Source of the DNA: an uncultured Candidatus Saccharibacteria bacterium
GTDB lineage: Bacteria > Patescibacteriota > Minisyncoccia > Phycocordibacterales > UBA2100
DNA: 64,000 nt
NCBI GenBank assembly: GCA_964648335.1
Contig: CAZYLZ010000001.1
Coordinates: 93,449 to 157,448 of the forward strand
Direction of reading: 5' to 3'
Under the pieces are notes generated by a model, which saw nothing but the letters and a program-made list of their open reading frames with translations, did no database searches and had not been told where the DNA came from. Shown here piece by piece: positions 19,304-62,262 of the stretch. The stretch's first letter is position 1; each line of letters opens with the position of its first letter. The translations under genes and the position numbers were made by a program.

Positions 19304-20743
19304 ATGAGCGTGCATTCCTTCCGATATCCGCTCTCTATATTCGCGTTCTCTATGGCGTTCGCCGCAGCGTTCCAGACTTCTGTCGCGCTCGCCGCCGAAA
19401 TCTCAGATGTGAAGATAACCGGCGTTGATGACGGATCGGCGACCATAAATTGGAACACCGATATTTCGACCGATGCGACCGTTAATTTCGGCATAGATCC
19501 GCGCGTGGGCATTGAGCGTGATCCACTCTTTGACAAGAAAGAGCATTCCATAGTGGTCGACAGGCTCGACCCCGCTACAACGTATTATTTTCGCGTCATT
19601 TCCACTGACGCGCAGGGTAATAAGAGTGCGACGGCAGGGTATCAGTTTACGACCAAGAGTAACGACAAGAAAACGGCAAAGAAGGCGGTGACCGAGATAG
19701 AAAAGATCAAGGATCCCGAGGCGCTCAAAGAAGTGATCGAAGAGGTGCAGAAGGTCGCGAGCGATGTCATCAGGCCACCGTCGATTCAGGGTGAGCCGAA
19801 GGTGATAGCCGCCAACGACCATGCGGACATTATTTGGACGACCGACCGCAACGCGAGCTCTATGGTGTATTTTGCCAAGGATGCGGAGTTTGATCCGGCT
19901 GCCGCGAACCCGTACCCGACAGCACAAGGCGACCCGAACGACTCGACCATGAAGCACACAATTACCCTCGTGGGGTTGAGCCCGTCAACCTTGTATCATT
20001 ACAAGGTTTCATCGGAAGACTCTGCGGGAATGACCGGAGAGTCCGAAGACAACACTTTTAAGACCAATGCGACCTTGCCGCAGATCATCAACCCGACCAT
20101 AAGCCGGATCCAAGAGACCGCGGCGACCGTGAGCTGGGCCACTGGCGGCGTACTTTCGAAGGGTGTGGTCGAGTATACGAACCTACGTTCCAAAGTCACC
20201 AAATCTGCAGGTAATCCGGTGTTTTTGACGAACCATAGCATTCAGTTATCGGGACTCGATTTTGGAACTCGCTATTCAGTAGTCATTACCTCGACCAACG
20301 AGGCGGGAAACGAAGTCGCGAGCAAGCCGCTGACGTTTCTCACCGTACGCGATATCGTCCCGCCGGCCATCGCTAAGGTCAACAACGAATCGACGCTCTT
20401 TCCGAGCGAAGACGTAAAGATACAGACGATCATTTCGTGGGAGACAGACGAGCCCTCCTTCTGTCAGGTTCATTACACGCAGGGACTCGTGCTTGCTGCG
20501 GGAGAGCAGGGCGACGTCTTGCCGCTCGAATCAAACCCGCTTACCTCGCATACACAGGTTATCGTCGGATTTGCTCCTGCAACCGTGTATAAGTTTTGGA
20601 TGCTCTGTCATGACGAAGCAGATAACGAGGCGCGATCCGAAGATTACGTGCTTATCACTCCGGTGAAAGAGAAGAGCATCATCGATATCATCCTCGAAAA
20701 CTTCCAAGGAACATTCGGCTGGCTCAAGAACATCAAAGGATAA
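19304..20743 (+). CDS. secreted protein with four FN3-like (purple-acid-phosphatase-N-terminal-like) domains
   Basis: Signal peptide ..AFAAAFQTSVALAA; four repeats each ending in an FN3 hallmark: ATTYYFRVISTDAQGN, TLYHYKVSSEDSAGM, TRYSVVITSTNEAGNE, TVYKFWMLCHDEADNE. Confidence 0.8.
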   Translation: MSVHSFRYPLSIFAFSMAFAAAFQTSVALAAEISDVKITGVDDGSATINWNTDISTDATVNFGIDPRVGIERDPLFDKKEHSIVVDRLDPATTYYFRVISTDAQGNKSATAGYQFTTKSNDKKTAKKAVTEIEKIKDPEALKEVIEEVQKVASDVIRPPSIQGEPKVIAANDHADIIWTTDRNASSMVYFAKDAEFDPAAANPYPTAQGDPNDSTMKHTITLVGLSPSTLYHYKVSSEDSAGMTGESEDNTFKTNATLPQIINPTISRIQETAATVSWATGGVLSKGVVEYTNLRSKVTKSAGNPVFLTNHSIQLSGLDFGTRYSVVITSTNEAGNEVASKPLTFLTVRDIVPPAIAKVNNESTLFPSEDVKIQTIISWETDEPSFCQVHYTQGLVLAAGEQGDVLPLESNPLTSHTQVIVGFAPATVYKFWMLCHDEADNEARSEDYVLITPVKEKSIIDIILENFQGTFGWLKNIKG

Positions 20744-20744
20744 T

Positions 20745-22091
20745 ATGGCAAAAACAGCAGTACAAGCGGCAGGGATGATCATCACTTACAACAAAGGTAA
20801 GGCGAATGAATTCAACGCGCTCAATAACGTCAATGCCGAGATTTATCCGCGCGAATACATCATCCTCTTCGGTCCGTCGGGTTGCGGCAAGTCGACCTTG
20901 CTCTATACGATGCTCGGGGGCATCCCACCCGAAAAGGGGCATATGTACGTGAAAGGCGAAGACATCTACGCCTACACTCCCGCCGAGATGAATGAATATC
21001 AGCAGTCGACCATCGGGATCGTGTACCAGCAGTTCAACCTCATCTCTTCGATATCGGTGCTCGATAATGTCGCTTTGCCGATGATTTTCCTCGGAAAGTC
21101 GGTCGCTGAGCGTAATGCGCGCGCGTCCGAGCTTTTGCGTCGTTTCGGCATCCCGGAACGTCTCGAGGACAAGCTTCCGACGAATATGTCCGGTGGACAG
21201 CAGCAGCGTGTGGCGGTTGCGCGCGCATTGGTGAACGATCCGGAAATCCTTCTCGCCGATGAGCCGGTCGGTAACCTCGACTCCATCTCTGCAGAGCACG
21301 TCATGGACTCGTTCAAGGAGATCAACGAGAAAGACCGCAAGACCGTGGTGCTTGTCACACACGACGCGAAGTACCTTCCGTACGCGCACCGGGTATTTTA
21401 TATGCGCGATGGAGCGCTCCGACGCATCGTCGTGAATCCAGAGAAGGATCAGATATTGCACATGAAGCCGGGCGAGACGATCGTGACCGAGATCGAGCTC
21501 TTGAACCGACTCTACCCATATGCCGAGCCGATCGAACTCAAGGTGAAGAGCCTGGTTAATTACGCGACGCAGACCATTGGATTCGCACAGCTCGAACGGT
21601 TGGAAAAGGGGATATTGCAGGTGCTCCGCGGCGCTTTCGATGAAGCTATGTTTAACGAATACCTCCAGAAGGGCATGCGCGAGGGCGGCGTCGGTATCGT
21701 GAGCGAAGAGAGTAGAGATATCACGAAAAAGGTGTTTGCTATCGTGAGACAGTCGAAAGACGTGCACCAGTATCGCGAAGAGGTAAAAAATGACACCATG
21801 TTCTTGCACCAGCGCAAGTTCATTGACCGGATCCTTACCTATATTCTCGAGGAGACAGGAACGGTTTCGACGCCGCAGCAGCTCAAGATCCTCCATGATG
21901 CGGTTGCCGACCGCGTCGGGGGCATCACCAACGGAAGCGAATTCGAAGAGATACTCGCGCTCCCGTTCGAGCTCGGTGGAGCCAATTACCCAGAACTTGT
22001 TGCACACCGCACTGCACGGTATCTCGAGAAGCTGATCGCGCAAGGTGGGTATATCATTCTTGCTAACGAGCTCCTCGGAGCGCACACCTAA
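20745..22091 (+). CDS. ABC transporter ATP-binding protein (MacB/LolD-like NBD) with a C-terminal extension of about 220 aa of unknown function
   Basis: Walker A GPSGCGKST, Q-loop, signature LSGGQQQRVAVARAL, Walker B ILLADEPVGNLD, H-loop VTHD. The start is 1 nt after the stop of the upstream FN3 gene. Confidence 0.95.
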   Translation: MAKTAVQAAGMIITYNKGKANEFNALNNVNAEIYPREYIILFGPSGCGKSTLLYTMLGGIPPEKGHMYVKGEDIYAYTPAEMNEYQQSTIGIVYQQFNLISSISVLDNVALPMIFLGKSVAERNARASELLRRFGIPERLEDKLPTNMSGGQQQRVAVARALVNDPEILLADEPVGNLDSISAEHVMDSFKEINEKDRKTVVLVTHDAKYLPYAHRVFYMRDGALRRIVVNPEKDQILHMKPGETIVTEIELLNRLYPYAEPIELKVKSLVNYATQTIGFAQLERLEKGILQVLRGAFDEAMFNEYLQKGMREGGVGIVSEESRDITKKVFAIVRQSKDVHQYREEVKNDTMFLHQRKFIDRILTYILEETGTVSTPQQLKILHDAVADRVGGITNGSEFEEILALPFELGGANYPELVAHRTARYLEKLIAQGGYIILANELLGAHT

Positions 22092-22095
22092 ACGT

Positions 22096-23304
22096 ATGAA
22101 AGCAAAAGACATCGCAATGCTCTCGACTCGTATGTTCAAGACGAACCCGTCTCGAACGTGGCTCACTATCCTCGGCATGGGTGTCGGAACCGGTGCTGTC
22201 GTGGCTCTTGTGGGTCTTGGCTTCGGACTTCAGAGCATCATTCTCGAGCGCATCGTCTTCGGTGAGACTCTCTTGAGCTTGAACGTGGCTAATCCGCCAT
22301 CATTGGTGGTGAAGCTCGACCAGAAGACTATCGATGACTTTGCTACAGACCCGTTGGTTAAAGATGTCTCGCCTATGGCGAGCTTCCCTACCTTGGTGAC
22401 CTACGAAGGCCTTACCGGTAATGCATTCTTGCAGGGTATGAAGCCCTCGTACTTCCTGTATACCGGAGGCAAGGCTGAGGCAGGAGAGCTCTTTTCCGAT
22501 GCGACCGCGATCGACGATCGCGATAATGTCATCATCTCGTCGGCCATGCTCAAGCTGTTCGGTGTCGAGAAGCCCGAACAGGCCCTCGGCAAGAAGATCA
22601 GCTTCCGAGTATTCGTCCCGATCGAAGGTACCGAAGAATCGACGGAGATAAACCTTACGAAACAATACACGATAAAAGGTGTGAGCGGCGACGTATCGTC
22701 CTTGGTGGCCATCATGACAATGGACGAGTTCCAGTCTCATTTCAAAATTCCTCACTACGAGCGTACCCAAGTGCGCGTCCTAAAGAGTGATAACCTTGCC
22801 GAGGTACAGAACGCAATCCTTGCGAAAGGATTTACCGTGACGGCTCTTTCGAAGACGGTCGAGCAGGCGAACAAGATCTTCCAGGGAATCCAGTTCGTCC
22901 TGGCTGTGTTCGGGGGTATCGCACTGACGGTTTCTGCAATCGGTATGTTCAACACGATGACGGTTACGCTCCTCGAACGCACTGCGGAAATCGGCGTCAT
23001 GCGAACTATCGGCGCATCCTCGACCGATATCGTGATTCTGTTCGTCGCCGAGTCGATCATCGTAGGGTTTTTGGGAGGGGTCGTAGGAATACTCATCGGG
23101 GTGGGGATAGGGTTCGGATTAAATGGAGTCGTCAGTGTTGCGGCAAGTAAATTCGGCGGAGAGTCGGTGCGCATCTTTGCATACCCGATGCCGTTTCTAG
23201 TGTTCATCGCGTCGTTCTCGGCTGCCGTCGGTTTCTTGACGGGACTGTTTCCAGCACGTCGTGCGGCGAAGATCAACCCGCTCGACGCTATCAGGTACAA
23301 ATAA
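22096..23304 (+). CDS. ABC transporter permease of the FtsX/MacB type (4 TM helices, large extracytoplasmic loop)
   Basis: First TM LTILGMGVGTGAVVALVGLG, extracellular domain of about 220 aa, then three C-terminal TM helices (FVLAVFGGIALTVSAIG, VAESIIVGFLGGVVGILIGVGIGF, FLVFIASFSAAVGFLTGLF). The start is chosen at ATG 22096, just after the NBD stop at 22091. Confidence 0.85.
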   Translation: MKAKDIAMLSTRMFKTNPSRTWLTILGMGVGTGAVVALVGLGFGLQSIILERIVFGETLLSLNVANPPSLVVKLDQKTIDDFATDPLVKDVSPMASFPTLVTYEGLTGNAFLQGMKPSYFLYTGGKAEAGELFSDATAIDDRDNVIISSAMLKLFGVEKPEQALGKKISFRVFVPIEGTEESTEINLTKQYTIKGVSGDVSSLVAIMTMDEFQSHFKIPHYERTQVRVLKSDNLAEVQNAILAKGFTVTALSKTVEQANKIFQGIQFVLAVFGGIALTVSAIGMFNTMTVTLLERTAEIGVMRTIGASSTDIVILFVAESIIVGFLGGVVGILIGVGIGFGLNGVVSVAASKFGGESVRIFAYPMPFLVFIASFSAAVGFLTGLFPARRAAKINPLDAIRYK

Positions 23305-25477: not shown

Positions 25478-26476
25478 ATGGTCATGAAGTCGGCCATGCA
25501 ACGGCTCGGTATTTTGCGTTACGCGCCTGTTTTGGCGATCGTTGCTGTCGTGGTGTCGCTATTCCCGGGACATGCGTACGCCGGTTTCGGTATCACACCT
25601 CCCTATGTCAATAATGATCGACTCACTCGCGGAACTCAGTATAAACAGGAGATAACGCTGGTGCGCTCAGACCCGAACGAGGACCTGAAGGCGATCATCA
25701 CTTTGAACATTCCGGGCGCCGAGAGCTGGATTTCGATTGACAAGGGTAAGGAATTCACGCTGCCGAAAGGAGAGAGACAAGTGCCGATCGTCGTGACGGT
25801 TACGGTTCCTAAGGATGCGGAGTACAAGCAATACAAAGGTGCCATCAGAATCAGAACCTCTGCTGCGGATAACGCACCAGCAGGTGGCGGAGTCTCTATC
25901 GCGCTGGGAGCGCAGATTGACGTCGATATGAAGGTCGTGGACAAGATCTATGATTTCGAAGTCAGGCGCATCCGCCTCGTCGATCTCGAAGAGGGCCATA
26001 CTCGCTTCGGACTGTTCTTCCCGGCGAAGATTAGGTTTTTCATGACCATCGAGAACACAGGTAACACCGAGTACGGTCCAACGAAGGTCAAGTTCGACAT
26101 CTTTGATGCTGAGCAGGAGACGCTGTTGGAATCGACCGAAAACACCAATAGGATCGAGCGGATAGCACCGTTCGGCATAAAGGAAATCGTGGCCGAGCTG
26201 CCTACTCGATTACCAGCCGGGCGCTACGCGGCGAAATACACCATTTTCAATGGCGAGAAGGTCGCGCAGCAAAACGTCGCGAATATTTCGATCGCGGTGT
26301 TCGGCGCAGTTCCAGGATACGAAGGTTACGGATTCGAAGGGCTCTCGATCGCCGACAAGCTCAAGGTATTGGTCGTGCTCGGAGTGCCATTCGCACTTCT
26401 CGTAGGTCTCATAATTGCGGTCATCATCCGTCGAAAGAATCGCCGACGCCCGCGAACGACGCATGCTTTCCGATAA
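25478..26476 (+). CDS. CscA-like surface protein (DUF916/DUF3324-like architecture: signal peptide, two beta-sandwich-like halves, C-terminal TM helix and basic tail); fourth paralog of the 46.7-52.0 kb family
   Basis: Signal peptide ..LFPGHAYA; TM VLVVLGVPFALLVGLIIAVII followed by RRKNRRRPR; core similar to CDS 46670, 48025 and 50866 (ITLNIPGAESWISIDKG..FTLPKGERQVPIVVTVTVP). Confidence 0.55.
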   Translation: MVMKSAMQRLGILRYAPVLAIVAVVVSLFPGHAYAGFGITPPYVNNDRLTRGTQYKQEITLVRSDPNEDLKAIITLNIPGAESWISIDKGKEFTLPKGERQVPIVVTVTVPKDAEYKQYKGAIRIRTSAADNAPAGGGVSIALGAQIDVDMKVVDKIYDFEVRRIRLVDLEEGHTRFGLFFPAKIRFFMTIENTGNTEYGPTKVKFDIFDAEQETLLESTENTNRIERIAPFGIKEIVAELPTRLPAGRYAAKYTIFNGEKVAQQNVANISIAVFGAVPGYEGYGFEGLSIADKLKVLVVLGVPFALLVGLIIAVIIRRKNRRRPRTTHAFR

Positions 26477-27647
26477 CCGTCATTTCCGCGAGCTCCTTCA
26501 CGAGACGCGCCTCAATGCGACACTTGTGCTGCTTGTCGGTCTTATGATCGCGGCTGCCGTGCTCATGTGGGGTGTGTCTCTGACACAGGCAAATGACGTT
26601 CCCACATCTGCCATCATCACAATCTGCGGCGATGGTCTCGTCGGTGTCGGAGAAGTCTGCGATGCCGGACGGCCGTTCAATATCGGGGGCTACGCTTCGT
26701 CAACGACTTTGCGTACGTGCGAACCGGGGTGCGAGACGTTCGGACCCTATTGCGGAGATCACACACTCCAGGTTCGCTTCGGGGAACAGTGCGATGACGG
26801 CAATAACACTTCGGGAGACCTTTGTGATGCGACCTGCGCGACAGAACCGCCACCGCCACCTACGGGTGGAGCCGGAGGCTCGCCGTCGGTCGGGAGTACG
26901 CCGTTCGTACCTGGGGCATCTCCCGGTTCCATCCCGTCGGAGCGGCAGACCAAGGTAGTGCTGCGGGGGAAGGCATACGCAAACAGTACCGTGAACATTC
27001 TCCTTGACGGCAAGGCGGTAGGTACGGTTACTGCAGACTCGAATGCAGATTTCCTGTTCACGACGACCGCGATAACTCCGGGGACTGCTACCTTCAGTTT
27101 CTGGTCGCGCGATGCTGCCGGGGTCGATTCAATAACCACATCAATGGTATTCGAAGTCGTGCAAAGCGCCGTCACCACACTCGCGAACATTTATCTGCCA
27201 CCGACTATCGCGGCGAGTAGCAAGCAGATCAAGCCCGGTGGGCTCGTTACTCTCTCGGGCTACACAGTGCCTTCGGCCAAGGTCTCCTCTCCGATAATCC
27301 CCGGCGACAAGAGTGCTCTCTCATCGACCGCCGATGGTAGCGGCAAGTGGGCGCTCCAGGTAGACACAGCATCGCTGTCCAACGGATTCCACAGCGTCAA
27401 ATCCATGTTTCAGCTCCCAGACGGCAGCAAGAGCGGGTACGGACGTTCGCTAAGTTTCTTCGTCGGTGAAGGGGAGCCTCCTGCGGGCAAATCACCTGAC
27501 TTGAACCTCGACGGCAAGGTCAACCTCATCGACTTCTCTATATTCCTGACCTCATGGGGGACCGACAACGATCGCAGTGACTTCAATAGCGACACCAAGG
27601 TGAATCTTGCCGACTTCAGTATCATGCTCTTCGCTTGGACCGGCTAA
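26463..27647 (+). CDS. secreted dockerin-tailed protein with a Myxococcus-type cysteine-rich repeat and Ig-like (Big-like) domains
   Basis: CGDG..GEVCDAG.. and CGDHTLQVRFGEQCDDGNNTSGDLCDATC (C-GDG-x-GE-CDDGN-x-GD-C-x-C pattern); poly-Pro/Gly linker; C-terminal DLNLDGKVNLIDFSIFLTSWG...FNSDTKVNLADFSIMLFAWTG, i.e. two dockerin-type calcium-binding loops. Confidence 0.7.
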   Translation: MLSDNRHFRELLHETRLNATLVLLVGLMIAAAVLMWGVSLTQANDVPTSAIITICGDGLVGVGEVCDAGRPFNIGGYASSTTLRTCEPGCETFGPYCGDHTLQVRFGEQCDDGNNTSGDLCDATCATEPPPPPTGGAGGSPSVGSTPFVPGASPGSIPSERQTKVVLRGKAYANSTVNILLDGKAVGTVTADSNADFLFTTTAITPGTATFSFWSRDAAGVDSITTSMVFEVVQSAVTTLANIYLPPTIAASSKQIKPGGLVTLSGYTVPSAKVSSPIIPGDKSALSSTADGSGKWALQVDTASLSNGFHSVKSMFQLPDGSKSGYGRSLSFFVGEGEPPAGKSPDLNLDGKVNLIDFSIFLTSWGTDNDRSDFNSDTKVNLADFSIMLFAWTG

Positions 27648-27670
27648 CAGGTCTGAGTACGCGGTATACT

Positions 27671-28618
27671 ATGCTTACGACTATGCGAAATGTATTCATC
27701 GTCTCTACTTTGTTGAGCACGCTCATGCCACTCTCTGTGAGCGCAGCCTCATTCGTGCTTGATCCAGTTGAGGGATCATACGGAACCGGCGATACGTTCA
27801 TCGTGGCAGTCCGCGTCGATGCAGGTGGCGAATGCCTCAACGCGGCACAGGTCACACTCGACTATCCGAAAGAGACGCTCCGGGCAGTCGACTTCAGTAA
27901 GGGCGACTCGATTTTCAGCCTGTGGATCGATGAACCGGTACTTGATGCCGATTCCGGTAAGGTCATTTTCGCTGGCGGGATACCAGGCGGCTATTGCGGA
28001 AGGATCACCGGCGACCCGGCCCCTACCGACATTCTCGGGAAGGTCGTATTTAGCGTGATCGGCACCAAAGCTAAAACGGTATCCATAGCGACGGGGCCTG
28101 AGTCGGAAGCGTATCTCAACGATGGACTCGGGACGAAGATCTTGCCGAAATCCGGCCAAGCAACATTCTCGATCGGCACCTCGCGGGTGCAGCCGTCGAG
28201 CGAGTGGACCGATTTGGTAGCCGAGGATAAAACTCCGCCGGACCCATTCATCATCCAGGTACAATCCGAAAAAGGAGTCCTCGGTGGGAAGCGCTTTGCC
28301 GTGTTCTCGACGATAGATAAACAGAGCGGGCTCGACCACTATGATATCTACGAAGACGGCGGCTGGAGCCGCATAGAGAGTCCGTATGTGCTGAAAGGGC
28401 CAGCATCTCAATCGCTCAGGATCCGGGCCGTGGATAAGGCGGGGAACGAGCGCATTGCTGAGTATGTGCCAAACGACGCCCTTTCGACCCCTATGACGGC
28501 CGATATTGCACCGAGCCTACTCTCGCTCATAGTCCTGTTCGTCATCTTTGGCATTCTCGCCATGACACATCTGTATATCGAGCGGAAGAAGGAAGAAGAG
28601 GCCGCGGCATCGCTATGA
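27671..28618 (+). CDS. cohesin-like domain protein anchored by a C-terminal TM helix (candidate anchoring scaffoldin)
   Basis: Signal peptide; SFVLDPVEGSYGTGDTFIVAVRVDAGGECLNAAQVTLDYPKETLRAVDFSKGD matches the cohesin N-terminal strand pattern; C-terminal TM LLSLIVLFVIFGILAMTHLYI followed by ERKKEEE. Confidence 0.6.
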   Translation: MLTTMRNVFIVSTLLSTLMPLSVSAASFVLDPVEGSYGTGDTFIVAVRVDAGGECLNAAQVTLDYPKETLRAVDFSKGDSIFSLWIDEPVLDADSGKVIFAGGIPGGYCGRITGDPAPTDILGKVVFSVIGTKAKTVSIATGPESEAYLNDGLGTKILPKSGQATFSIGTSRVQPSSEWTDLVAEDKTPPDPFIIQVQSEKGVLGGKRFAVFSTIDKQSGLDHYDIYEDGGWSRIESPYVLKGPASQSLRIRAVDKAGNERIAEYVPNDALSTPMTADIAPSLLSLIVLFVIFGILAMTHLYIERKKEEEAAASL

Positions 28619-29610
28619 GCAACGGCCGTCACTGGCTCGCCATATACCTGCTGCTTGCCTGCGTCGTTATGGGACCGACGCCTCTGTTTGCAGTCGGAGC
28701 ATCGCTCAAGATAGTCCCCGAGACTGTGCGCAGTGTGGTCGGAGAATCTGTCACATTCGATATTCTGGCGGACACTGGCGGACAGCCGTCGTTTGCCGCG
28801 GAGGCCGAGATTTCTTTCGATCCGAGTCAAGTATACGTCGAGAGCATTTCCACAGAGGGTTCCGTGCTCGGATCTTGGGCGACGAATCCGGAATTCTCGA
28901 ACGATCTCGGCGTGGTCAGATTCTCAGGACTTGCTCCTAACCGTTTTGATGGCGCTGCTCAAAAGTTGCTTTCCATAACGCTGGTACCTAAGACCGCCGG
29001 CAGCGGGGCGCTCCGCATCATTTCTGGGGCTCTTCTGGCGTCAGATGCCCGTGGGTCGAATATCCTCGCGGAGCTGATACCGGCCTCCTACGTTTCCGAG
29101 GCTGCTATCGCGCCGATAGCAGCGCGTCCAGTCGTGGCTGCGCCGATACCTGAGGCGCCAAGTACCTTAGGAGCCACTCCTTCGGTACTTGGCGCATCGA
29201 CAGTTGTAGCGCCCTCAATCTGGGACTACCCGGTGGCACCTATCTTAGGCGAGCGGCTTATCGTCAAAGGCACCGCGATGCCGGACAGTAAGGTCCTCGT
29301 CGTATACGTCCGCAACTTGGAGCCTGAGGTCATCGGCGAGACACGCGCCGCATCAGACGGTTCGTTTGTCTATGCTTCGGACGAGCGCATGCAAGAGGGC
29401 ACGTATCGCCTGTGGGCCGAGATAGAAAACGATACCGGAGAGAGAGGCGAGCATTCGATGGAAGTATCGTTTAGCATCATATCGAATCAGGTCGCCGCAA
29501 GCGCAATCGCGCTCGGAAATGTCGGAACGGGCGCAGGCCTAGTCATGGCGGGTCTTGTTTTTGTGGGACTTGTTGCTATCGCCGTCTTGCGACGCTCACG
29601 ATTCGTGTAG
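28615..29610 (+). CDS. second cohesin-like domain protein with an Ig-like domain and a C-terminal TM anchor
   Basis: ATGA start/stop overlap with the upstream gene; signal peptide; SLKIVPETVRSVVGESVTFDILADTGG..AEAEISFDPSQVYVESI..VVRFSG; Ig-like unit with ASDGSF; TM GAGLVMAGLVFVGLVAIAVL followed by RRSRFV. Confidence 0.6.
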   Translation: MSNGRHWLAIYLLLACVVMGPTPLFAVGASLKIVPETVRSVVGESVTFDILADTGGQPSFAAEAEISFDPSQVYVESISTEGSVLGSWATNPEFSNDLGVVRFSGLAPNRFDGAAQKLLSITLVPKTAGSGALRIISGALLASDARGSNILAELIPASYVSEAAIAPIAARPVVAAPIPEAPSTLGATPSVLGASTVVAPSIWDYPVAPILGERLIVKGTAMPDSKVLVVYVRNLEPEVIGETRAASDGSFVYASDERMQEGTYRLWAEIENDTGERGEHSMEVSFSIISNQVAASAIALGNVGTGAGLVMAGLVFVGLVAIAVLRRSRFV

Positions 29611-29618
29611 CGTCAGCG

Positions 29619-30386
29619 TTATTCTCGTTTCGTGAACAGGATAGAGAGATCCGAGAGGCCGAGCTTGCCGTTACCGTCGAGATCGTAGCGGATATCATAC
29701 GGTCCGAGCATCTTGAATGCGAGAATCGAAATGTCGACGAGGGTGACCTTGCCGTCGAGATTGAGATCGGGGTTCCCGGTTGTTGCTATTGCGCTACTGC
29801 CGCCGGCGGTCTCTTGTGGTCGCGTCTCGACCACAAGCGGCTCTTCGTCGTGTTCCATCGAGATGCCTGATCCGTCATTCGGATAGACGAGTACGTCGCT
29901 TAAGACTAATGCGCCACGGCCAGGGTTGATTGCCTTTATTTTGATAGTCAGAGCCGTCTCTTCGCCTTCAACTCCGCCGGGGCGGGTCGATCCGCCACTA
30001 AAGCGTACCGCATGCGCTTTCTCATCTATCTCAGTATCCTCGGTCCACAGATCGAGAAATGATTTTTCTTTACTGATTCCAATGACCTCAATGATATCTG
30101 AAGGGAAGAGTATTCGAGCGCCGAAGGCGTTGATAGGAACTTTCGCTGTGACGCGAAGGTCGACGTTCATCGTGTCGCCCACGAGGAGCTGACGCGGGCT
30201 TTCGGGTACAAAATAGACCCGCGCAGGGGCTTCGAGAGTGGACGACGCGCTCGAAGCCAAAAGCCCTATGATATCCGTCTGTGAAAGCGTTATTGTGAAA
30301 ACAGCCGCGAGAAGAAGAACGGAGATGATGCCGATGTGCCACTTTTGTCGGCCTGCCGGGTTGCTCGGCTTAGGAGCCTGTATCAT
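29619..30386 (-). CDS. cohesin-like plus dockerin protein (adaptor-scaffoldin-like) with an N-terminal signal anchor
   Basis: TM IGIISVLLLAAVFTITL; ARVYFVPESPRQLLVGDTMNVDLRVTAKV..AVRFSGG (cohesin-like); C-terminal DLNLDGKVTLVDISILAFK...DLDGNGKLGLSDLSILFTK (dockerin repeats). Confidence 0.6.
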   Translation of the reverse strand: MIQAPKPSNPAGRQKWHIGIISVLLLAAVFTITLSQTDIIGLLASSASSTLEAPARVYFVPESPRQLLVGDTMNVDLRVTAKVPINAFGARILFPSDIIEVIGISKEKSFLDLWTEDTEIDEKAHAVRFSGGSTRPGGVEGEETALTIKIKAINPGRGALVLSDVLVYPNDGSGISMEHDEEPLVVETRPQETAGGSSAIATTGNPDLNLDGKVTLVDISILAFKMLGPYDIRYDLDGNGKLGLSDLSILFTKRE

Positions 30387-31311: not shown

Positions 31312-31351
31312 CAAATCTCGGGGGTCGAGATTAAAAAAATGACAAATCTCG
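31312..31351. promoter_or_regulatory. palindrome AATCTCG-GGGGT-CGAGATT overlapping the ribosome-binding region of the HTH gene, plus a direct repeat of CAAATCTCG (31312-31320 and 31343-31351)
   Basis: 7-bp arms with a G-rich spacer; the second copy of the half-site lies in codons 2-4 of the HTH gene. Confidence 0.4.
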
Positions 31352-31755
31352 ACCATCAAGAAAAAGGCATGATCAAGGAAAATCCAAACCTCATAACGCT
31401 CAAAGAAGCGGCAGAAATGTCTGGCTATAGTTCGGACTACATTGGGCAACTGATTCGCAGTGGAAAGTTACCCGGGCAGCAGGTATTCGCCAATGTTGCA
31501 TGGATGACGACGCGCGAGGCAGTCCTCGAATACACACAGAAGGGACGGAGGTCTTCTGTCGGGTCCACGGGCAGCCTGTTCGAAAAGATGTTTTCGATTG
31601 AGCGATTGGTCGCGATCTTCGGGGTTTTCACCAAGGCGGTTATCGGTCTTATGGCGGTGTTCTTGCTTTTTCTGGGCTACGTACTGTCGGTCAGCATCGA
31701 TCACCACATCGAGAAGCAGTACCAGGAGAAACTAGAGCATGCACAGAGCATCTAA
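31339..31755 (+). CDS. small membrane-tethered DNA-binding protein with an excisionase/MerR-type HTH (HTH_17-like) and a C-terminal TM helix
   Basis: ITLKEAAEMSGYSSDYIGQLIRSGKLPGQQVFANVAWMTTREAVLEY fits the Xis-family HTH pattern; TM AVIGLMAVFLLFLGYVLSV; its 3' end overlaps the giant gene 2 start by 17 nt. Confidence 0.65.
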   Translation: MTNLDHQEKGMIKENPNLITLKEAAEMSGYSSDYIGQLIRSGKLPGQQVFANVAWMTTREAVLEYTQKGRRSSVGSTGSLFEKMFSIERLVAIFGVFTKAVIGLMAVFLLFLGYVLSVSIDHHIEKQYQEKLEHAQSI

Positions 31756-34700
31756 ACCCTCACGTGCGATTTTTCGCGCCCTCTTGCGGTGGCAGGATCT
31801 TTTTGCCGTACTCGCACTATCTTCGACGCTCCTCTCGCCGGTACTCGTCCTCCCGCTCCCGGCATACGCTGCAGTCGGAGTGCCACGCATCATCAACAAT
31901 CAGGGACGTCTCATGGATGCTAACGGTAGCCTCCTTGGCGGTGCGGGTACCGATTACTGTTTCAAATTCTCGCTGTTCGATGACGCTTCCGTGGGTTCCG
32001 GTTCGCAAGTCTGGCCGTCGGTCGCTCCGTCGATCATGACAGTTCCTGTGAAGCAAGGTATCTACTCGGTCGGTGTCGGAGACACGGATCAGGGTGGCGA
32101 CGTGCTCGACTACAATTTCCAGGACAACGACGCTGTGTACTTGAATGTCGAGGTTGCTGCAAAGGTTGGTGCTACGTGTGCTGTCGGCGATGGTGCTGAG
32201 ACATTCGAGAACCTCTCGCCACGTCAGCGTATTTTCGCATCCGGCTATGCCGTTAATGCCGCGACGGTCGGAGGCTTTACACCGGCGCAGCAGGCTACGG
32301 GAAATCAGATCCCGGTTTTGAGCGCCGGAAATCTCATCCTCGCTGCATCTAACCCGTTCATCAATGCGACCTCGACGAACGCACTTACCCTGCAGGGAGG
32401 TGGCAGCGTATCAGGAGACATTCGGTTTTTCAATGCCGGCAACAAGCTGACATCGGCTGGCAATCTCACACTCACAGGTTCGGTTACCGCATCGGGTCTT
32501 TCGAGCTTTACGAATCTGTTGATCGGCGGCCTCTCGACTACGACCATCCAGGGTACGACCTCCGGCACGTCGACCATCCAAGGATTCTTGAATGTACTTG
32601 GGACCAACTCGACGTCTACGTTCTCCGGATCTATCGCAACTCCGTTTCTTAACCTGACGGGAGCAGGTGCTACCTCGACTGCAGCGAGCGGCTTCGATAT
32701 CGCCGCAGGCTGTTTCTCGATTGGCGGCGTCTGTGTTGGCGGGGTCAACTCAATCACGGCCAATGCGGACAACACACTTGTCGTTGACCCGACAGGCGGT
32801 AATGCCATTGTCGGACTCAATCTTTCTAACGCAAATATCTGGACTGGTTTGCAGCAATTTGCAAACGCGTCGTCGAGCATCTTTTCTGCAGGAAAGGCAT
32901 TCTTCGGAGCGACGGCAACCACCACTATCGATTCGGCCGGCAACGTCGACGTCGCGGGTACACTTGATGTTTCTGGCAACACCACGCTCGCCAAGGCGAC
33001 GTCGACATCGTTTGCGATAACGTCGGTAACCAACACGCTGTTGAAGACGGATGCCAACGGTTCGGTCGTTCCTGCGGTTCCAGGATCCGACTATCTTGTC
33101 TCGGCGGTTACATCACTCGGTGCTGCCGGACAAGCACAGACCGGAGCGACGCAGACCTTTGCAACATCCACGACCGTGACAAACGGCTTGACCGCTGCTA
33201 TCACAATCACTTCAAGTGGGAATGTGCATACGTTCACGCCGTCGGTAACGGGTACTCTCTCGGCGCTCGGCGGAGGTACCGGAATCGCTAATCCTTCGGC
33301 TGGGGGAATCCTCATCGGCTCGTACGTGGGCGGTGCGTACCAGCAGATTGCGACGTCGTCCTTGGGTATCCGTACCACCGATGTCCAGGAGGGATCTAAC
33401 CTGTACTACCAGGACGCAAGAGTTAATTCGTTCATCGATGCATCGACGACGATTCCGAAGACATTTTCTGCGAACGTCTTCTCGGGCCTCACTACGCTCA
33501 ATGGAGGTCTTACGGTTGGTTCATTGAACGGTCCCTTGCAGGCAAACAACGGCGTCGTGTCAGCTACCTCATCCATTGGTGTGGCATACGGAGGTACGGG
33601 AGTCTCTACTGCGCCGGCGTACGGACAGCTGCTTGTTGGCAACGCAGCATCAGGATATTCGCTCGTTGCGACATCGACCCTCGCTATCGCACTCACTGAC
33701 ACGACTGGGACGCTTGCAGTGAATCGCGGCGGCACCGGCATCACTTCACCGACAGCAGGTGCTATCGTACTTGGTGATTACTCGGGTACCGGGTACATGC
33801 AGATCGCGACATCGTCCTTGGGTCTGCTCACCACGAACGTCGCCGAAGGCTCGAATCTGTATTATCAGAACGCCCGCGTGCTCACGTACCTCGACTCGTT
33901 CGACAAAGGTTATTTCTATTCGACGACCTCGGCTGATTTCTGGAAATCACAGAATGATTTCTATTCGACGACCTCCGCCGACTACTGGAAGTCCCAGAGT
34001 AACTTCTTCTCTACTTCGTCCGTTGACTTCTGGAAGTCGCAGACCAACTTCTACTCCACGACCTCGGCGGATTATTGGAAGTCACAGAACAGCTTCTTTT
34101 CGACGACCTCATCAGACTACTTCCTCTCGCAAAACCGGGGTAGCGCGTTCTCGACGACCTCGGCCACGTACTTTGCCGATGCGTCCTCGACTATTGCCAA
34201 GACCTACTCGAACAATACGTTCACCGGAGTGAACGTATTCAATGGCGATACGACGCTCACGAACGCAACGACTGCATCATTGGCTGTAACAGGCGTGACA
34301 TCTTCTCTTCTTAAGACGAACGCAGATGGTTCTGTCGTGCCAGCGGTTGCCGGTGTCGACTACGCGGCTGCAAATGCATCGACATTCGGCAAGACCTTCG
34401 AGATCGACGCATCAGGCTACCTCGCTCCGACCACCTCGGTCACCGTGCGCCTTCCATCGGGATTCGTGTCGCAGGCATCGTCGACGGTTGATGGAAATCT
34501 CACGGTGACGGGGAATCTCACGGCAGGGAATGCCACTGTAACTCATGCGACTTCGACTTCATTCTTTGCTTCCGTTGCATCTTCAACAAACGCCTTCTTT
34601 ACCCGATTCGTCACTGGTAACGCCACGGCCACTGGTGCATTCGCTGCAGCAAATCTCGCTGTGACGGGTTCTACCACGCTTCAGAATGTCACCGCACAGA

Positions 34701-37700
34701 ATGCGACGACCACTAACGCCACTTCGACGTCGTTCTTTGCGGGCGTCTTGGCAGCGACCTCCGGCACTATTGCCAACATCTTTGGCACCAACGCCACCAT
34801 CACCGCAGCAACTACGACAAACCTTTTCGCGACCACCGCATCGACGACTAATCTCTTCGCCTCGAACCTCACTTTCGCCGGGGGGCAGGGAACGACAAGT
34901 GCCCTTGCCATCACCGGCATCACAAATGGCCTCTTGGGCACCAATGCAAACGGATCAATCAGCGCGACGTCCTTCTCGGGGCCGCTCTCGTTCTTCGGCA
35001 ACACCCTCACCATCACCCAGGCTAATGGCGCTACGAGCGGCTTCCTCGCATCTTCCGACTGGAACGTGTTCAACGACAAGGTGTCATCTACTTCCTTGGA
35101 TACCTCGGCAAAACTTGCCGCGCTCATCACCGACGAGACAGGATCCGGCTCTCTTGTCTTCGGCACTGCACCATCAATCACTGACGGGCGCTTCGCTTCG
35201 ACCACCTTATCTGGAAATGTGCTCATCACCGGCAATGCGACAGGTACGAATGCAACCACCACCACCTTTTATTCCACAACTGCATCAAGTACGAATTTGT
35301 TCACCTCGAATCTCTCCATCGGAAACCTAAATGGCCTTCTCAAGTCGACGAATGGACTGGTTGCCACCGCTATTGCGGGTACCGACTACATATCGAGCGT
35401 CTTCAAGGATTGGAATGTTGTAAACGGCGTTCTCGTACCTACTACCACGATCGGCGTTATCGTATCTGCGTCTTCGACGTTCGCCGGGGGCATCACAACA
35501 AGCAATGCTACGGCGACAAACGCTACGACAACCTCTTTGTTCGCATCTATCGCGTCTTCAACGAGTGCTTTTGCAACTAAGCTCTTTATCGGAAACGGAA
35601 CTTCTACCGGCGTATTTGCATCGAACGGTCTCATTGTCTCGGGATCGACAACGCTCCAAGATTTTGCAGGAGCCAACGCTACAATGACGAATGCGACATC
35701 CTCGTCGTTTTTCTCTTCAATCCTTTATGCCTTCAACGGCAGAATTGGCGATCTCATAGCTTCTACCAGTGCGACGCTAGCATCTACCACCGCCTACGGA
35801 CGGTTTATTACTGGAACTGTGGTCGCGACTTCATCTACCGGCACGTCGACTTTCTCTGGAGCAGTTGGAGTGGGTACTACAAACCCTTCGTATAAGGTTT
35901 CGATAGTTGGGTCTACGACGGCTGCAACATCGGCTACCGGTACCGCAGTCCTCTCCGTCACGAACACCAACAACACCTTGAGCTCGGGAACGAACGTCTT
36001 GCGTCTCAACATCCGCACGCCGTTCGGGACGGCATGCACTTCGGGCACGACATGCCCCCGCTTCATCGAGTATGTCTCGGGTATGGCAAATGGATCAGAT
36101 ACCGGAGGAGCGGGTGTCGGAAGCTTACGCCTCTCTACTGCTGGCACCGGTATCACGCAAACATCGGGCGCCGCAGACTTCGCTGAGTACATGCAGCTCA
36201 ATTCGTCGGCCGATGTCGGAGACCTTGTTTCGCTCAACTCGAGCGGACAGTACCAGAAGGCGGTAGCTGGTCAGTCGCTCATCGGCGTTATCTCTGACAA
36301 TCCGGCATTCGTTGGCAATGCAAACCTCGAAGGTCAGCCAAACGCATACGTCGTTGGGTTTGCCGGCGTCATCCAGACCACCGTGAGCGCAGAGAACGGT
36401 TCTATTAACGCCGGAGACCTCATCGCTGCGACGACGACTCCAGGCTTGGGTGTAAAACTTACTAAGTCGGGATACGCGCTGGGCCAGGCGCTCGAGTCGT
36501 ACTCGGGCCCGGGTAACGGAACCATCAAGGTCCTCGTGATGCCGAAGTACGTCGATGCGGCGATCGTACTCGATAGCTACGGCGGAACGACTGGCGGGAC
36601 ATCGGGCTACTGGAGCCTTGCAACATCGACCGGGGAAGTGAGCCTCGCCTCGAGTACGTATTCGCTCCTAATCTCAGGAAAACTCTCTGCTGCCAACGCA
36701 TCCACCACGAACATCTCATCGACCTATGCGTCTTCGACCCGCGCATTCGTCGGTGCGCTCTCGGTCGGTAACTTGAATGGAGTCTTAAAGGCCACTGGCG
36801 GTCTCGTATCGACGGCGCTCGTCAATCTTACGAGCGAAGTGACGGGCACCTTGCCGGTGTTAAACGGAGGTACCAATATATCGACCCCGACTGCAGCAGG
36901 TGTACTGGTAGGCAACTACGCTGGAGACGGCTATATGCAGGTAGCGACATCGTCTTTGGGATTGACGACGACGAATATCACCGAAGGCACAAACCTCTAC
37001 TACCAGAACGCACGCGTGCTCTCGTACCTCAACACCCTCGACAAGGGCTACTTCTTTGCTAGTACCTCTGCCGATTATTGGAAGACTCAGAACAACTTCT
37101 TCTCGACTACGTCTGTCGATGCCTGGAAACTGGTCAATAACTTCTTCTCGACGACTTCGACCGACTACTGGAAAACCCAGAACAATTTCTTCTCTACGAC
37201 CTCGGCCATGTACTTTGCCGACGCATCATCGACTATCGCCAAGACCTACTCGAACAACACCTTCACCGGAGCGAATGTGTTCAATGGCGATACTACCTTG
37301 GGTAAGGCAACATCATCGTCATTCGCTGTCACCGGCATCAGCTCTGCGCTCGTCAAAGCCAATGCCAATGGTTCGTTCGTGCCGGCGATCCCGGGAGTTG
37401 ATTATGCTGCGGCGAACGCATCGACCTTCGGGCAGACATTCGAGATTGGAGCCGACGGGTTCCTGGCCCCGACGTCGTCCATTGTTGTTCGACTCCCGAA
37501 TGGATTCGTCTCGCAGGCATCGTCGACGGTCGATGGAAATCTCACTGTCACGGGATCGCTTGCTGCTGGAAACGCGACCATGACTAACGCGACGACAACG
37601 AGCCTTTTTGCATCCGTCGCATCTTCGACCAACGCCTTCTTCACCCGCCTCATCACTGGCAACGCCACCTCGACCGGCCAGTTCGCTGCAGCCAACCTCT

Positions 37701-40700
37701 CGGTAAGCGGCTCCACGACGCTCCAGAACGTTTCGGCAGTGAACGCAACCACGACGAATGCGACCACCACCGGCAGCGCCTACATCGCGAATCTCTCGCT
37801 CGGCTCGGCACTCACCGCTTCAAACGGCGGTACTGGCATCTCGGCTCCTGCAGCAGCTGGCATCCTCCTGGGCAACTACGCAGGCGGCGGCTACCAGCAG
37901 CTCGCAACATCCTCGCTCGGCCTCTCTACTACCGACATCACCGAAGGCACAAACCTCTACTACCAGAACGCCCGTGTCTTGACCTACCTCGACACGTTCA
38001 ACAAGGGCTACTTCTACTCAACAACGTCAACTGACTACTGGAAGACCCAAAACAATTTCTTCTCAACCACCTCGGCAGATGCCTGGAAGCTCGTGAGTAA
38101 CTTCTTCTCTACCACCTCCTCACAGTACTTCTTGTCGCAGAACCAGGGAGCCGCGTTCTCGACCACGTCGGCCATGTACTTTGCCGACGCATCATCGACT
38201 ATCGCCAAGACCTACTCGAACAACACCTTCACCGGAGCGAATGTGTTCAATGGCAACACGACCTTGGGCAAGGCGACCACCACATCCTTTGCCATCACCT
38301 CGGTGCCTGCCGCCATCCTCAAGACCGATGCAAACGGCTCCGTCATCCCGGCGATCGCCGGCGTCGACTACCTCACGGGCAGCCTCTACGGCAAGTCATT
38401 CGAGATCGACGCATCGGGCTACCTCGCACCGACCACCTCGGTCACGGTGCGTCTCCCGAGCGGCTTTGTCTCCCAAGCATCGTCGACGGTCGATGGAAAT
38501 CTCACCGTGACCGGTAACGTGACTGCCGCAAACGCCACTGTAACTAATGCGACCTCGACATCGTTGTTCGCCTCGATTGCTTCGTCGACGAGCGCTTTTG
38601 CCACGCGTTTGTTCGTCGGGAATGCGACGGCGACTGGGGTGTTTGCAGCCAACGGCCTCATCGTATCCGGCTCGACGACGTTGCAGAATTTTTCGGGTAA
38701 CAATGCGACCACTACGAACCTGTATGCCGTAACGGCATCTACGACAAATCTCTTCGTATCGAACGGCACTATCGTTCGCTCGACTACCACAAACGCGACA
38801 ACAACGACCAGTTTCGCAACTACTGCTTCGTCGACTAATCTTTTCGCTTCGAACTTCTCACTTGGCAACCTCACGGGAATACTCAAGGCAACTGCGGGTA
38901 CGGTGTCGACCGCGCTCGTGAATCTGGCGACCGATGTCACGGGCATCTTGCAGGTGGCAAACGGAGGCACCGGCTGGGCAGCGGTGCAGGCGGGATCGCT
39001 CTTGTATGGAAATGGATCGGGTAGCTTGGCTACTACGACACAGGGCAGCGCAGGCCAGATGCTCGCGTTCTTGAACGGCGTGCCGACGTGGGTCGCGACG
39101 ACCACGTTCTCGAACGGCCTTACCTATGCCAATGGAAATGTCACGCTCTCTTCGCAAGTCGCGCTCACTAACGCGTCTTCTACTGCGGTATCTGCCAATG
39201 ACTATCTTTCGGTTGGTCGAACAGCGACGACCACAATCCGTGGCGAAACGAACGCAACATCTACCTTTGCTGGTGGTATCCAGGCAACCGCACTCAACCT
39301 TACGGGTGCTGCGACATCTTCTGCCTCGGGTGGATTCAATCTCACAGCCGGGTGTTTTGCAGTGAACGGGACCTGTCTCGGAAACGCGCAACCAGGAACT
39401 AATGTTGTATTGACTGCGGTGCGCAATTACACGACAACGCAACAGTGGACGGTCCCGTCAAACCTCGTGTATGCAGTGGTCGAAGTGTGGGGTGGTGGTG
39501 GAGGAGGAGGAGACGGAGACGGTACCGGAGACGGTACCGGCGGCGGCGGCGCAGGCGGTTATGCATCAAAGACGTACACGGCGACCACGTTGGTCGGAAC
39601 TACTTCGATCCAGGCGCTTGTTGGTGCCGGCGGTGCAACGACAACGAGCGCGACCGGCAGTACTGGCGGTACCTCAAACTTCGGTGGATACGCCACCTCG
39701 ACTGGCGGTGCAGGCGGCGTCCGTGCAAATGGTGGCGAAGGCGCGGGAGGAGCCGGCGGGGTCGGCTCTGGAGGCGATATTAACCTGGCAGGAGAACCGG
39801 GTGGTCTGGGCGATACGACGATGGCAAACCAACAAGGTAACGGTGGTTCCGCGCCTCGCGGCGGTAACGGCGGCCTTGGAGGAAATCAGACCACGGGTAA
39901 TGGCGCAGTGGGTGGTACCTGCGGTGGCGGTGGCGGTGGCGCCGGTGGTGCGGCAGGAGGCGGCGGTACTGGTTGCATAGTCATCTATGAATACACGGCC
40001 ACTAACGTTGCACTCGGAAACGGCAGCGTAAATTCCGGATCGACCGGTCAGGTTGCTTACTATAACGCTGCTGGGCAGGCGGTCACGGGCTCGTCGATAC
40101 TATATATAGACAGTGTAAACGGTCGCGTGGGAGTCGGTTCGACCACTCCGGCCGCCGCCTTGGGTGTCTCGGGCGACGCATTCATAAACGGACGGGTGAC
40201 AGCGTCGCACCTGACTGCAACAGGTACCTTGTCGGTCACTGGGTCCACGACACTCCAAAACTTTACAGCGGGAAATTCGACCACATCTAATGCAACCTCG
40301 ACCAATACGTTTGCCACGACGGCATCGTCGACAAACCTTTTTACATCAAACTTTACCTTGGGTGGTCTTACCGGGATCCTCAAAGCAACTGCGGGTCTCG
40401 TCTCTGCATCTTTAGTAGACCTCACCACCGACATCACCGGCATCCTCCAGGTAGCAAACGGCGGAACCGGATGGGACAACCTTGTCGCCGGAACACTCCT
40501 TACCGGCAATGGCTCGGGCAAGGTGGCTACCACCACGATCGGATCCTCGCTCCAGATCTCGGGCTCGTCTCTTGGTCTCAATCTCTCGAATCCGAACATC
40601 TGGACCGGTCTCCAGACTTTCACCAACGCGTCGACCACCTTTGTCTCCGTCCTTACTAAGGCGTCGTTCGGATCGACCGCCACCACCACCATCGACTCGG

Positions 40701-46640: not shown

Positions 46641-46669
46641 TGTGCATAAGTGCTTAACCGATTACCTGT

Positions 46670-49422: not shown

Positions 49423-49650
49423 TGAATAGGGAGTGAAGTAGTGCGTATGTGTATAAAACCAAGGGAATCAAAGATAAAATACGCCGTTATCCACACCGGT
49501 CAGAGTGATTTTCACCATACTCTACTATACTTGTCTTGTAAGGAGTGATGTGCGTCCCTCCTCATTAGTGGCACTAGCGATTGATAGATACCAACATATT
49601 CCAACGTAGTCATTTAGAAGAAAGTTAATCAACGTTATTCACGACCACTT

Positions 49651-50793: not shown

Positions 50794-50808
50794 TGGCCTA
50801 GTCAAGCA

Positions 50809-50837
50809 AAAGCCGTCCACTGGACGGCTTTTGTCTT
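50809..50837 (+). terminator. rho-independent terminator after the WxL-like gene
   Basis: aagccgtcca/tggacggctt perfect inverted repeat followed by TTGTCTT. Confidence 0.7.
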
Positions 50838-50865
50838 AATGCCGAGAGCCCCTAGGTATGCTAGT

Positions 50866-51972: not shown

Positions 51973-51990
51973 AGGTACATTGGCAACGGT

Positions 51991-52413
51991 ATGAACAGCG
52001 GTACTATCAGGTCGACAGTGAGCAAAGGCGCCCTGATAGTGGCCGTGACTTTGCTTGCGTACGCTCTTTATTCGACACCGCTCGACAGGTTAAGTTCGCT
52101 CGCCTTGGAGACTGTTGCAAGCGCGACAGTCTCGATGAGTGCTGGCGTCCCTCCTAATCCGTACAACACTGCGGCCGAGCAGCTGAGCGCGAAAGAGGCA
52201 GAGCTTGTCGCTCGCGAGAACCGACTCACGATGCGCGGGTCGATGCCATCGAACCCGGCTGGCCACGATACATTTGCGGTCTACAGCCTTCTGGTCAGTA
52301 TCGCCCTTTTTATACTCGTCGCGATCAACTTCTTTTTTGACTGGAAGAGGGGGAGACAAGGGGTCCCAGCGTCTGCACCGTATCTTTCGCTCGATTTGCG
52401 CCGACGACAGTAA
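51991..52413 (+). CDS. hypothetical membrane protein (two TM helices)
   Basis: LIVAVTLLAYALY and YSLLVSIALFILVAINFFF. Confidence 0.5.
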   Translation: MNSGTIRSTVSKGALIVAVTLLAYALYSTPLDRLSSLALETVASATVSMSAGVPPNPYNTAAEQLSAKEAELVARENRLTMRGSMPSNPAGHDTFAVYSLLVSIALFILVAINFFFDWKRGRQGVPASAPYLSLDLRRRQ

Positions 52414-61964: not shown

Positions 61965-62262
61965 GAGGTGATTATAGTGCTCGAGAGGCTATTAATTCAA
62001 CATCAGGCCACTACAGCGCTCTAAGAGGTATGCTTTCGCACACCTCCGGTGCTCTTTTTTTGGCGGTGCATTCGGGTTAAGTGCCCGTGCCTACCAATCA
62101 TTGTAAGGGTTTTTGAGGAACTTTAACACTAGCGGATTTGAGGCATGTGGGTCGGTCTCAATAGACACGATAGACACTATAAAAAGGATTGAGAAAGTGT
62201 CTTGTGTGACCGTGGAGGTATTTACACCTTTGACCACCTAGATACTTTTCTATATATGCAGA

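Follow-up and report, generated by a model that had tools for sequence, protein, structure and literature searches.

A putative non-cellulosomal cohesin-dockerin envelope complex within a conserved Parcubacteria gene cluster

The 64,000-nt stretch of DNA analyzed here in full (the window; uncultured Candidatus Saccharibacteria bacterium, GenBank assembly GCA_964648335.1, contig CAZYLZ010000001.1, positions 93,449 to 157,448) encodes a set of predicted secreted and membrane-anchored proteins built from cohesin and dockerin modules. Four adjacent genes, designated A, B, C and D, and a fifth, E, which is located 22 kb downstream of this group, make up the set (Table 1): cohesins are carried by B, C and D, and dockerins close A, D and E. 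An initial annotation of the window had proposed that these genes constitute a modular system for displaying varied non-cellulolytic cargo at the cell surface. Our analysis points instead to a non-cellulosomal cohesin-dockerin envelope complex encoded at the center of a gene cluster that is conserved throughout the lineage of Parcubacteria (Patescibacteria, or Candidate Phyla Radiation, CPR), an interpretation to which we assign a probability of roughly 70%.

That cohesin modules occupy three adjacent genes, as originally annotated, is supported by predicted structures, profiles and orthologues alike. Structures were predicted for B and D, and both contain a nine-stranded beta-sandwich (jelly roll) of ~140 residues that is superposable on solved cohesins; the structural check suggested for B by the initial annotation thus came out in its favor. 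The cohesin fold is thereby established for B and D, and for C by homology. BLASTP relates B to D (3e-7) and C to D (6e-5) and finds nothing significant between B and C, whose kinship is visible only via D and via profiles. When families are compared as profiles, B and D align with a probability of 98.9 and an E-value of 2.9e-17 (hhalign), and the hidden Markov model (HMM) of the C family matches B (4e-36) and D (2e-17) and no other of the window's 487 six-frame open reading frames (ORFs). With the B-family profile as query, the PDB yielded cohesins only (5g5d, 2bm3, 3kcp, 2b59 and 5m0y), at weak E-values of 0.021-0.35. Profiles and folds were needed because phmmer, run on PDB sequences with B, C or D as a single query, returned chance matches only. 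Among relatives, the Pfam Cohesin model (PF00963) is detected in 18 of 48 aligned B members at E<=0.1 (best 2.7e-6) and in 17 of 29 aligned C members at E<=0.01 (best 1.9e-9); precomputed PF00963 matches are already recorded on C orthologues, and some of the 1,823 detectable homologues of B are labelled "cohesin domain-containing protein" by NCBI. The GDT pattern that had been ascribed to each of the three modules is present in B (GDTFIVAVRV) and D (GDTMNVDLRV), whereas C has GESVTFDILA.

Topology was assigned from hydropathy. B and C have N-terminal signal-like segments and C-terminal transmembrane (TM) helices (residues 279-297 in B, from ~298-316 onwards in C), in agreement with the anchoring originally proposed for them, and their coupling through an ATGA overlap of the B stop and C start codons is equally clear. 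B and C are thus predicted to be type-I membrane proteins whose N-terminal cohesin faces the cell exterior. Residues 212-260 of B match NF047446. The single hydrophobic helix of D is N-terminal. In most lineages C is longer, with ~580 aa: between its other domains it has an additional one that is a homologue of domain two of B, and it has a coiled-coil tail on the cytoplasmic side that would connect the surface complex to the cytoplasm; D lies on the plus strand in these lineages. The coiled-coil-like stretch that follows the TM helix is ~100 aa long (for example in the gene at 11031..12806 of related locus L034), and the 331-aa C of the window is without it. Two further observations concern B. 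Gene callers choose a 297-aa version (starting MPLSV) that loses the signal peptide, while the family consensus favors the longer start. Its cohesin also has invariant C55 and C109 (a possible disulfide), a GG(I)PGGYCG motif and W85, which are atypical of cellulosomal cohesins.

Dockerin tails were found exactly where they had been annotated. A regular expression for the calcium-binding loop has six matches in the whole window, paired at the extreme C-termini of A, D and E, with none elsewhere. Each tail consists of two ~22-residue segments with an EF-hand-like loop (D-x-N/D-x-D/N-G-x-x-x-x-x-D) and then a helix; in the model of D, helices 216-225 and 244-253 follow the loops. The D-family profile matches the tails of A and E at ~2e-11, the Pfam model Dockerin_1 (PF00404) is carried by 15 of 37 D orthologues, and the same model is found on a fragment identical to the E tail and on the great majority of that A/E tail's close relatives. 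In an alignment of 28 dockerins, taken from the window and from related loci, loop positions 1 and 12 are invariant aspartates in both repeats, and position 5 is one in the first repeat but varies in the second. Two subtypes can be distinguished in this alignment, since the tails of A and E end in ...DFSI(M/L)LFNWTG-COOH and those of D differ. The dockerin is also the most conserved part of A, with a mean p-distance of 0.31 compared with 0.56 for the remainder, which fits a constrained interface. Upstream of its dockerin, A contains the Myxococcus-type cysteine-rich repeat that had been noted there (TIGR02232, two stretches, 43.7 bits against a cut-off of 20.8), together with DUF4215 (28.6 bits, cut-off 27). 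The immunoglobulin-like (Ig-like) unit said to be shared by the cargo proteins is real: this Big_13/Big_6 unit is common to A and E (Big_13 in E, 31.7 bits) and occurs in C as well. The DGSF signature attributed to it is found literally in E and C and is missing from A.

To survey the proteins to which such dockerins are attached, the A/E dockerin profile was run exhaustively (hmmsearch) against 1.84 billion representatives, in place of a word-indexed search with the dockerin alignment that had returned short fragments only. The hmmsearch recovered 27,419 proteins at E<=1e-3. From the best 150 of these, 143 were classified by their bodies, dockerin fragments being excluded, and 103 of the 143 end in W(T/S)G. 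Among these best matches, 71 of the W(T/S)G-ending proteins have 250 aa or more; 46 of them are E-like (median 575 aa) and the remaining 25 A-like (median 366 aa), and no other body, enzymatic or otherwise, was seen. Likewise, 116 of the 117 dockerin ORFs in 86 related loci (~1.4 Mb) belong to the A, D or E families. These counts indicate that the A/E dockerin marks two structural, Ig-rich families and not a repertoire of enzymes. As the initial annotation had stated for glycoside hydrolases, no such domain is found in any of the window ORFs scanned, both giant ORFs included, and the same holds for carbohydrate esterase, polysaccharide lyase and carbohydrate-binding module (CBM) domains. The hallmarks of a cellulosome, namely a multi-cohesin scaffoldin, dockerin-bearing carbohydrate-active enzymes and a CBM, are thus absent, and each cohesin protein has a single cohesin with no tandem array. 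A flexible, cellulosome-like platform that shows many non-cellulolytic cargo proteins, enzymes included, through a shared dockerin is therefore very improbable, even though three cohesins and an adaptor-like cohesin-dockerin protein do resemble anchoring and adaptor scaffoldins, and further dockerin proteins could lie elsewhere in a genome of which 64 kb was inspected. Because the dockerin subtype of A and E sits on only two structural families among the best matches, the idea of modular display of varied cargo is not sustained, and the locus looks like a complex of fixed subunits rather than a flexible platform.

The composition of the complex can be judged from its conservation. Relatives of the locus were collected by scanning one genome per GTDB species, which gave 80 loci, and each feature was counted only in loci with enough flanking sequence, so that denominators differ. 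The recurrent gene order is fn3 protein, ATP-binding cassette (ABC) ATPase, MacB/FtsX permease, P627, P354, A, B, C and D, and the same order surrounds three distant B homologues. This cluster is co-conserved in 83 independent loci from Adler-, Kaiser-, Nealson-, Nomura-, Falkow- and Taylorbacteria, Spechtbacterales and other Patescibacteria, and its proteins are 30-50% identical across many candidate lineages. In 67/73 loci the gene immediately downstream of B encodes a second cohesin protein, and in 61/71 a dockerin gene of the A/E type lies upstream of B; P354 is present in 52/63 and P627 in 45/57, the ABC and MacB genes lie upstream of B at a distance of no more than 10 kb in 32/46, the fn3 gene precedes the ABC gene in 28 related loci, and D is present in 37/62. 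Within orthologues, the modules themselves are retained almost without exception: the dockerin in 72/73 A and 42/43 D proteins, and the cohesin in 96/96 B, 73/73 C and 43/43 D proteins. The initial annotation missed this larger, deeply conserved unit, to which a MacB-type ABC transporter and three families without an assigned function also belong. The transporter has the make-up of a MacB-type (type VII) system, that is, an FtsX permease with a MacB periplasmic core and a separate LolD/FtsE-like ATPase. The best NCBIfam matches of the ATPase are LolD, DarD and FtsE, which cover no more than residues 10-226, and the match to nucleotide-binding-domain models is limited to residues ~10-240; since the nearest models (LolD, FtsE and MacB) score far under their equivalog cut-offs, no specific ABC subfamily is assigned. 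The ~210-aa C-terminal extension of the ATPase is conserved (orthologues have 440-448 aa) and matches no family.

E also belongs to this system and is not a distant cargo protein, as had been supposed. A second sub-cluster at ~45-54 kb of the window contains, besides E, an orthologue of a ~390-aa family and paralogues of P354, and is thus a split-off part of the same system; in other lineages these genes lie inside the main cluster, and the ~390-aa protein sits between A and B in a clade of the Nomurabacteria type. Three P354 paralogues (P377 at 50839..51972, and those at 46670..48028 and 48025..49422) score 3e-53, 1.7e-10 and 3.9e-12 with the P354-family HMM.

Conservation of this kind also bears on whether the two kinds of module bind each other. 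Both folds could be real and yet not paired, with the beta-sandwiches serving as stalks or spacers of membrane proteins and the EF-hand pairs binding Ca2+ or external ligands, host surfaces and glycans among them. The modules share only 7-22% identity with characterized cohesins, the residues peculiar to the B family (C55, C109 and GGIPGGYCG) differ from what cellulosomal cohesins usually show, and dockerin-like repeats are common without a cohesin context, as judged from the 27,419 representatives recovered. Against this, the partner genes are strictly adjacent and both domains have been kept across deep lineages, D combines the two modules in a single protein in 42 of 43 orthologues, and the dockerin is better conserved than the body that it closes. 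We regard unpaired modules as improbable, although less so than the flexible platform.

In the complex that we favor, A and E are predicted to be secreted, Ig-rich structural proteins that end in a highly conserved dockerin subtype. Their Ca2+-loaded dockerins would plug into the membrane-held cohesins and so tether both proteins at the surface. D, which combines cohesin and dockerin as the initial annotation had recognized, would act as a bridge in the manner of an adaptor scaffoldin, its own distinct dockerin engaging another cohesin and its cohesin being offered to a further partner. The outcome would be a small surface structure of fixed composition, assembled non-covalently. Since A, B and C persist in lineages that have no D, the most likely binding partner of the A dockerin is B or C.

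Several observations weigh against this interpretation. In direct scans, B and D have no match to Pfam Cohesin, and the Dockerin_1 scores of A (20.7 bits) and D (16.3 bits) are under the gathering score of 22.9 bits. The Pfam check suggested earlier was therefore passed by E (31.9 bits), while A, D and C fell short, C reaching 16.4 bits (E 0.011) with Cohesin, whose gathering score is 24.1 bits; with such weak scores for the window's own proteins, assignment to the cohesin and dockerin families rests on folds, profiles and orthologues. D is missing or farther off in ~40% of loci, and its N-terminal helix is modelled with a predicted local distance difference test (pLDDT) score of 56-87 and could be either a cleaved signal or an anchor. 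The putative pairing of dockerins with cohesins is drawn from gene adjacency and co-retention. A mirror-tree comparison of dockerin and cohesin distance matrices from 26 loci gave raw correlations of 0.63-0.95 that are dominated by phylogeny; partial correlations among the modules do not exceed 0.33 and assign no binding pairs.

What the complex does for the cell may be approached through its neighbors. Probable further components of this envelope apparatus are the co-conserved MacB-type ABC transporter, P627, P354 and the 390-aa family. A structural role in the envelope, anchoring of a sheath or S-layer, or attachment to a host are plausible but unproven functions, suggested by the adjoining giant surface proteins and by the domains shared between E and the 390-aa family and between P627 and a giant. 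A more specific form of our interpretation is that the whole cluster builds and anchors an S-layer, sheath or host-attachment structure of Parcubacteria, which is possible but hardly the likelier case. Its outer structure would then, tentatively, be composed of the 390-aa family and/or proteins with the P627 C-terminal domain, giants included, to which E and A would connect the membrane cohesins, with assembly powered by the MacB-type ABC transporter. The N-terminal domain of E is indeed that of a free-standing, highly conserved family, encoded elsewhere between A and B; the ~330-aa C-terminal domain of P627 recurs in a neighboring giant of at least 5999 aa (its last ~290 residues match the C-terminal half of P627 over ~330 profile positions, P627-family HMM, 1.4e-42); and giant genes flank the cluster in the window's clade. 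However, these links consist of synteny and shared domains only, and P627, P354 and the 390-aa family have no recognizable homologues in Pfam and PDB searches. Taken further, and with corresponding reserve, an undescribed envelope apparatus shared by Parcubacteria can be imagined in which TM-anchored cohesin-dockerin bonds replace S-layer homology (SLH), LPXTG or lipid anchors and hold an outer layer or attachment structure, the MacB-type ABC transporter being the assembly motor. The outer layer would speculatively consist of the 390-aa family, P627-domain proteins and the neighboring giant adhesins, in cells without conventional wall-anchoring. If true, this would give molecular parts to the S-layer or sheath seen by electron cryomicroscopy on ultra-small episymbionts.

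Comparison with known systems helps to delimit what is particular to this cluster. The glycoside-hydrolase toxins of Clostridium perfringens (GH33 NanJ and GH84 NagJ; PDB 2vo8, 2w1n and 2o4e) likewise form non-cellulosomal cohesin-dockerin pairs, but their modules are on secreted enzymes, whereas those of the cluster are on TM-anchored non-enzymatic proteins with Ig-rich structural dockerin partners; identity is 11-16%. The cohesin of Archaeoglobus fulgidus (PDB 2xdh) is non-cellulosomal as well, and a 2009 survey by Peer et al. is said to have covered modules resembling cohesins and dockerins outside cellulosomes across all three domains of life. These modules are encoded by scattered genes, in contrast to the fixed, operon-like unit found with ABC and MacB genes across a bacterial radiation. 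Among cellulosomal scaffoldins (SdbA and OlpA/C of C. thermocellum; ScaB and ScaC of Acetivibrio cellulolyticus), surface-anchored cohesins receive a dockerin as proposed here, and D shares the adaptor logic of a cohesin combined with a dockerin of different specificity. Scaffoldins are, however, anchored through SLH domains or by sortase, whereas the cluster uses a TM helix and one cohesin per protein, and has neither CBMs, enzymes nor a multi-cohesin scaffoldin. The WxL/Csc loci of Gram-positive bacteria (DUF916/WxLIP) also combine several secreted or TM-anchored beta-sandwich proteins and non-covalent surface assembly. P354 is remotely DUF916/WxLIP-like through one domain of its paralogue P377, and this similarity is marginal (WxLIP_PGBD, 26.3 bits against a cut-off of 27.3); the cluster is without WxL domains and LPXTG proteins.

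Parcubacteria and other CPR bacteria account for a large part of bacterial diversity, and they spend their lives attached to other cells. To our knowledge, essentially nothing but type IV pili has been described of the molecules that form their envelope and attachment structures. In a 2026 review of the phylum, type IV pili and occasional S-layers are the only such structures named. No account of the cluster emerged from our search of the literature on cohesins or dockerins in CPR, Patescibacteria or Parcubacteria, and the window's own proteins are named "hypothetical protein" in the sources that name them, although some homologues have already been annotated automatically as cohesin-domain proteins. 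The main interest of the cluster lies in CPR biology, and it differs from known systems by its TM anchoring, its fixed structural partners and its radiation-wide synteny with a MacB-type ABC transporter. About nine genes around a plug-and-socket interaction that is well understood and open to experiment offer a concrete handle on the CPR envelope. They would also extend the known uses of cohesin-dockerin modules beyond the recruitment of enzymes, to an envelope complex of fixed structural subunits in which single cohesins are TM-anchored and the dockerins fall into two subtypes.

Table 1. Coordinates of the cohesin-dockerin genes and neighboring features in the 64-kb window
Feature	Position	Strand	Description
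A	26463..27647	+	394 aa; N-terminal hydrophobic segment, TIGR02232/DUF4215 Cys-rich repeats (~26745..26849), two Ig-like domains (Big_6/Big_13), dockerin
A dockerin	27498..27644	+	A/E subtype with C-terminus ...FAWTG; loops DLNLDGKVNLID and DFNSDTKVNLAD
B	27671..28618	+	315 aa; signal peptide, cohesin (~27743..28180), OmpL47-like beta domain, C-terminal TM helix, short charged tail
C	28615..29610	+	331 aa; signal peptide, cohesin (~28699..29094), Big_13-like Ig domain, C-terminal TM helix
D	29619..30386	-	255 aa; one N-terminal hydrophobic helix, cohesin (~29817..30227), linker, second-subtype dockerin (~29628..29774)
E	52458..54182	+	574 aa; signal peptide, N-domain common with 390-aa family, two Big_13-like Ig domains, dockerin (~54030..54179) ending ...FNWTG
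fn3/purple-acid-phosphatase-N-like secreted protein	19304..20743	+	479 aa; Pur_ac_phosph_N 3.1e-26, fn3 2.3e-17; first cluster gene
ABC ATPase, LolD/FtsE/MacB type	20745..22091	+	448 aa; ABC_tran 8.7e-33 (114.3 bits)
MacB/FtsX-type permease	22045..23304	+	MacB_PCD 1.7e-18 (68.1 bits), FtsX 2.3e-15 (57.1 bits)
P627	23410..25293	+	Cys-rich, extracytoplasmic; one N-terminal hydrophobic helix; C-terminal half common with giant ORF 129..18128
P354	25412..26476	+	Signal peptide, two beta-sandwich-like domains, C-terminal TM helix, basic tail (hydropathy)
P262	30396..31184	-	N-terminally anchored; directly upstream of D; conserved only in the window's own clade
Second sub-cluster	45312..52413	+	Surface proteins: 442-aa protein, three P354 paralogues, 140-aa two-TM protein preceding E
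P354 paralogue	46670..48028	+	P354-family HMM
P354 paralogue	48025..49422	+	P354-family HMM
~390-aa family orthologue	49651..50793	+	phmmer 3.1e-68 to L034:8656-9828; N-terminal domain common with E
P377, P354 paralogue preceding E	50839..51972	+	P354-family HMM
Giant ORF	129..18128	+	>=5999 aa, open to the window's left edge; MG2, Ig-like and DUF2341 matches
Small HTH_17 protein	31339..31755	+	N-terminal HTH_17 DNA-binding domain, C-terminal TM helix
Giant Thr/Ser/Ala-rich repetitive surface protein	31739..43387	+	3882 aa; poly-Gly segment; L004 orthologue with Gly_rich_2

Among the remaining families, the 390-aa family has a mean column identity of 54%, which extends over its N-terminal hydrophobic region (LQA.AA.VGLA.LLWS.G.P...AEAANVT) and its C-terminus (...LTYVATPVF); conservation of the signal region at the level of sequence suggests dedicated processing or retention. 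The C-terminal domain of this family is shared by the 442-aa protein (1.4e-12). Searches of Pfam, NCBIfam and PDB profiles gave no informative family for P627, P354, the 390-aa family, P262, P228, P335 or the 442-aa protein. With hhalign, the P354 family matches the C family weakly (probability 78.7%) and in a region confined to the generic Ig domain plus TM helix, and the 390-aa family matches neither P354 nor P627. P262 was considered as the counterpart of the Nomurabacteria gene at the equivalent position, and this was rejected for want of homology.

Other features of the window are of less immediate relevance. Proteins of 800-1700 aa with the P627 domain lie upstream of the cluster in related loci L016, L047 and L077. 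The HTH_17 gene overlaps the start of the 3882-aa giant by 17 nt, and the pair is conserved in the window's clade. No tRNA genes are present in the window, and promoter and terminator scans gave no informative enrichment over shuffled sequences. At the right end (62001..64000), G+C content drops from ~0.55 to 0.374, both skews (GC and AT) are strongly negative, and an ORF there (62624..63925, minus strand, 433 aa) has no Pfam match; this low-G+C region may be foreign or mobile DNA.

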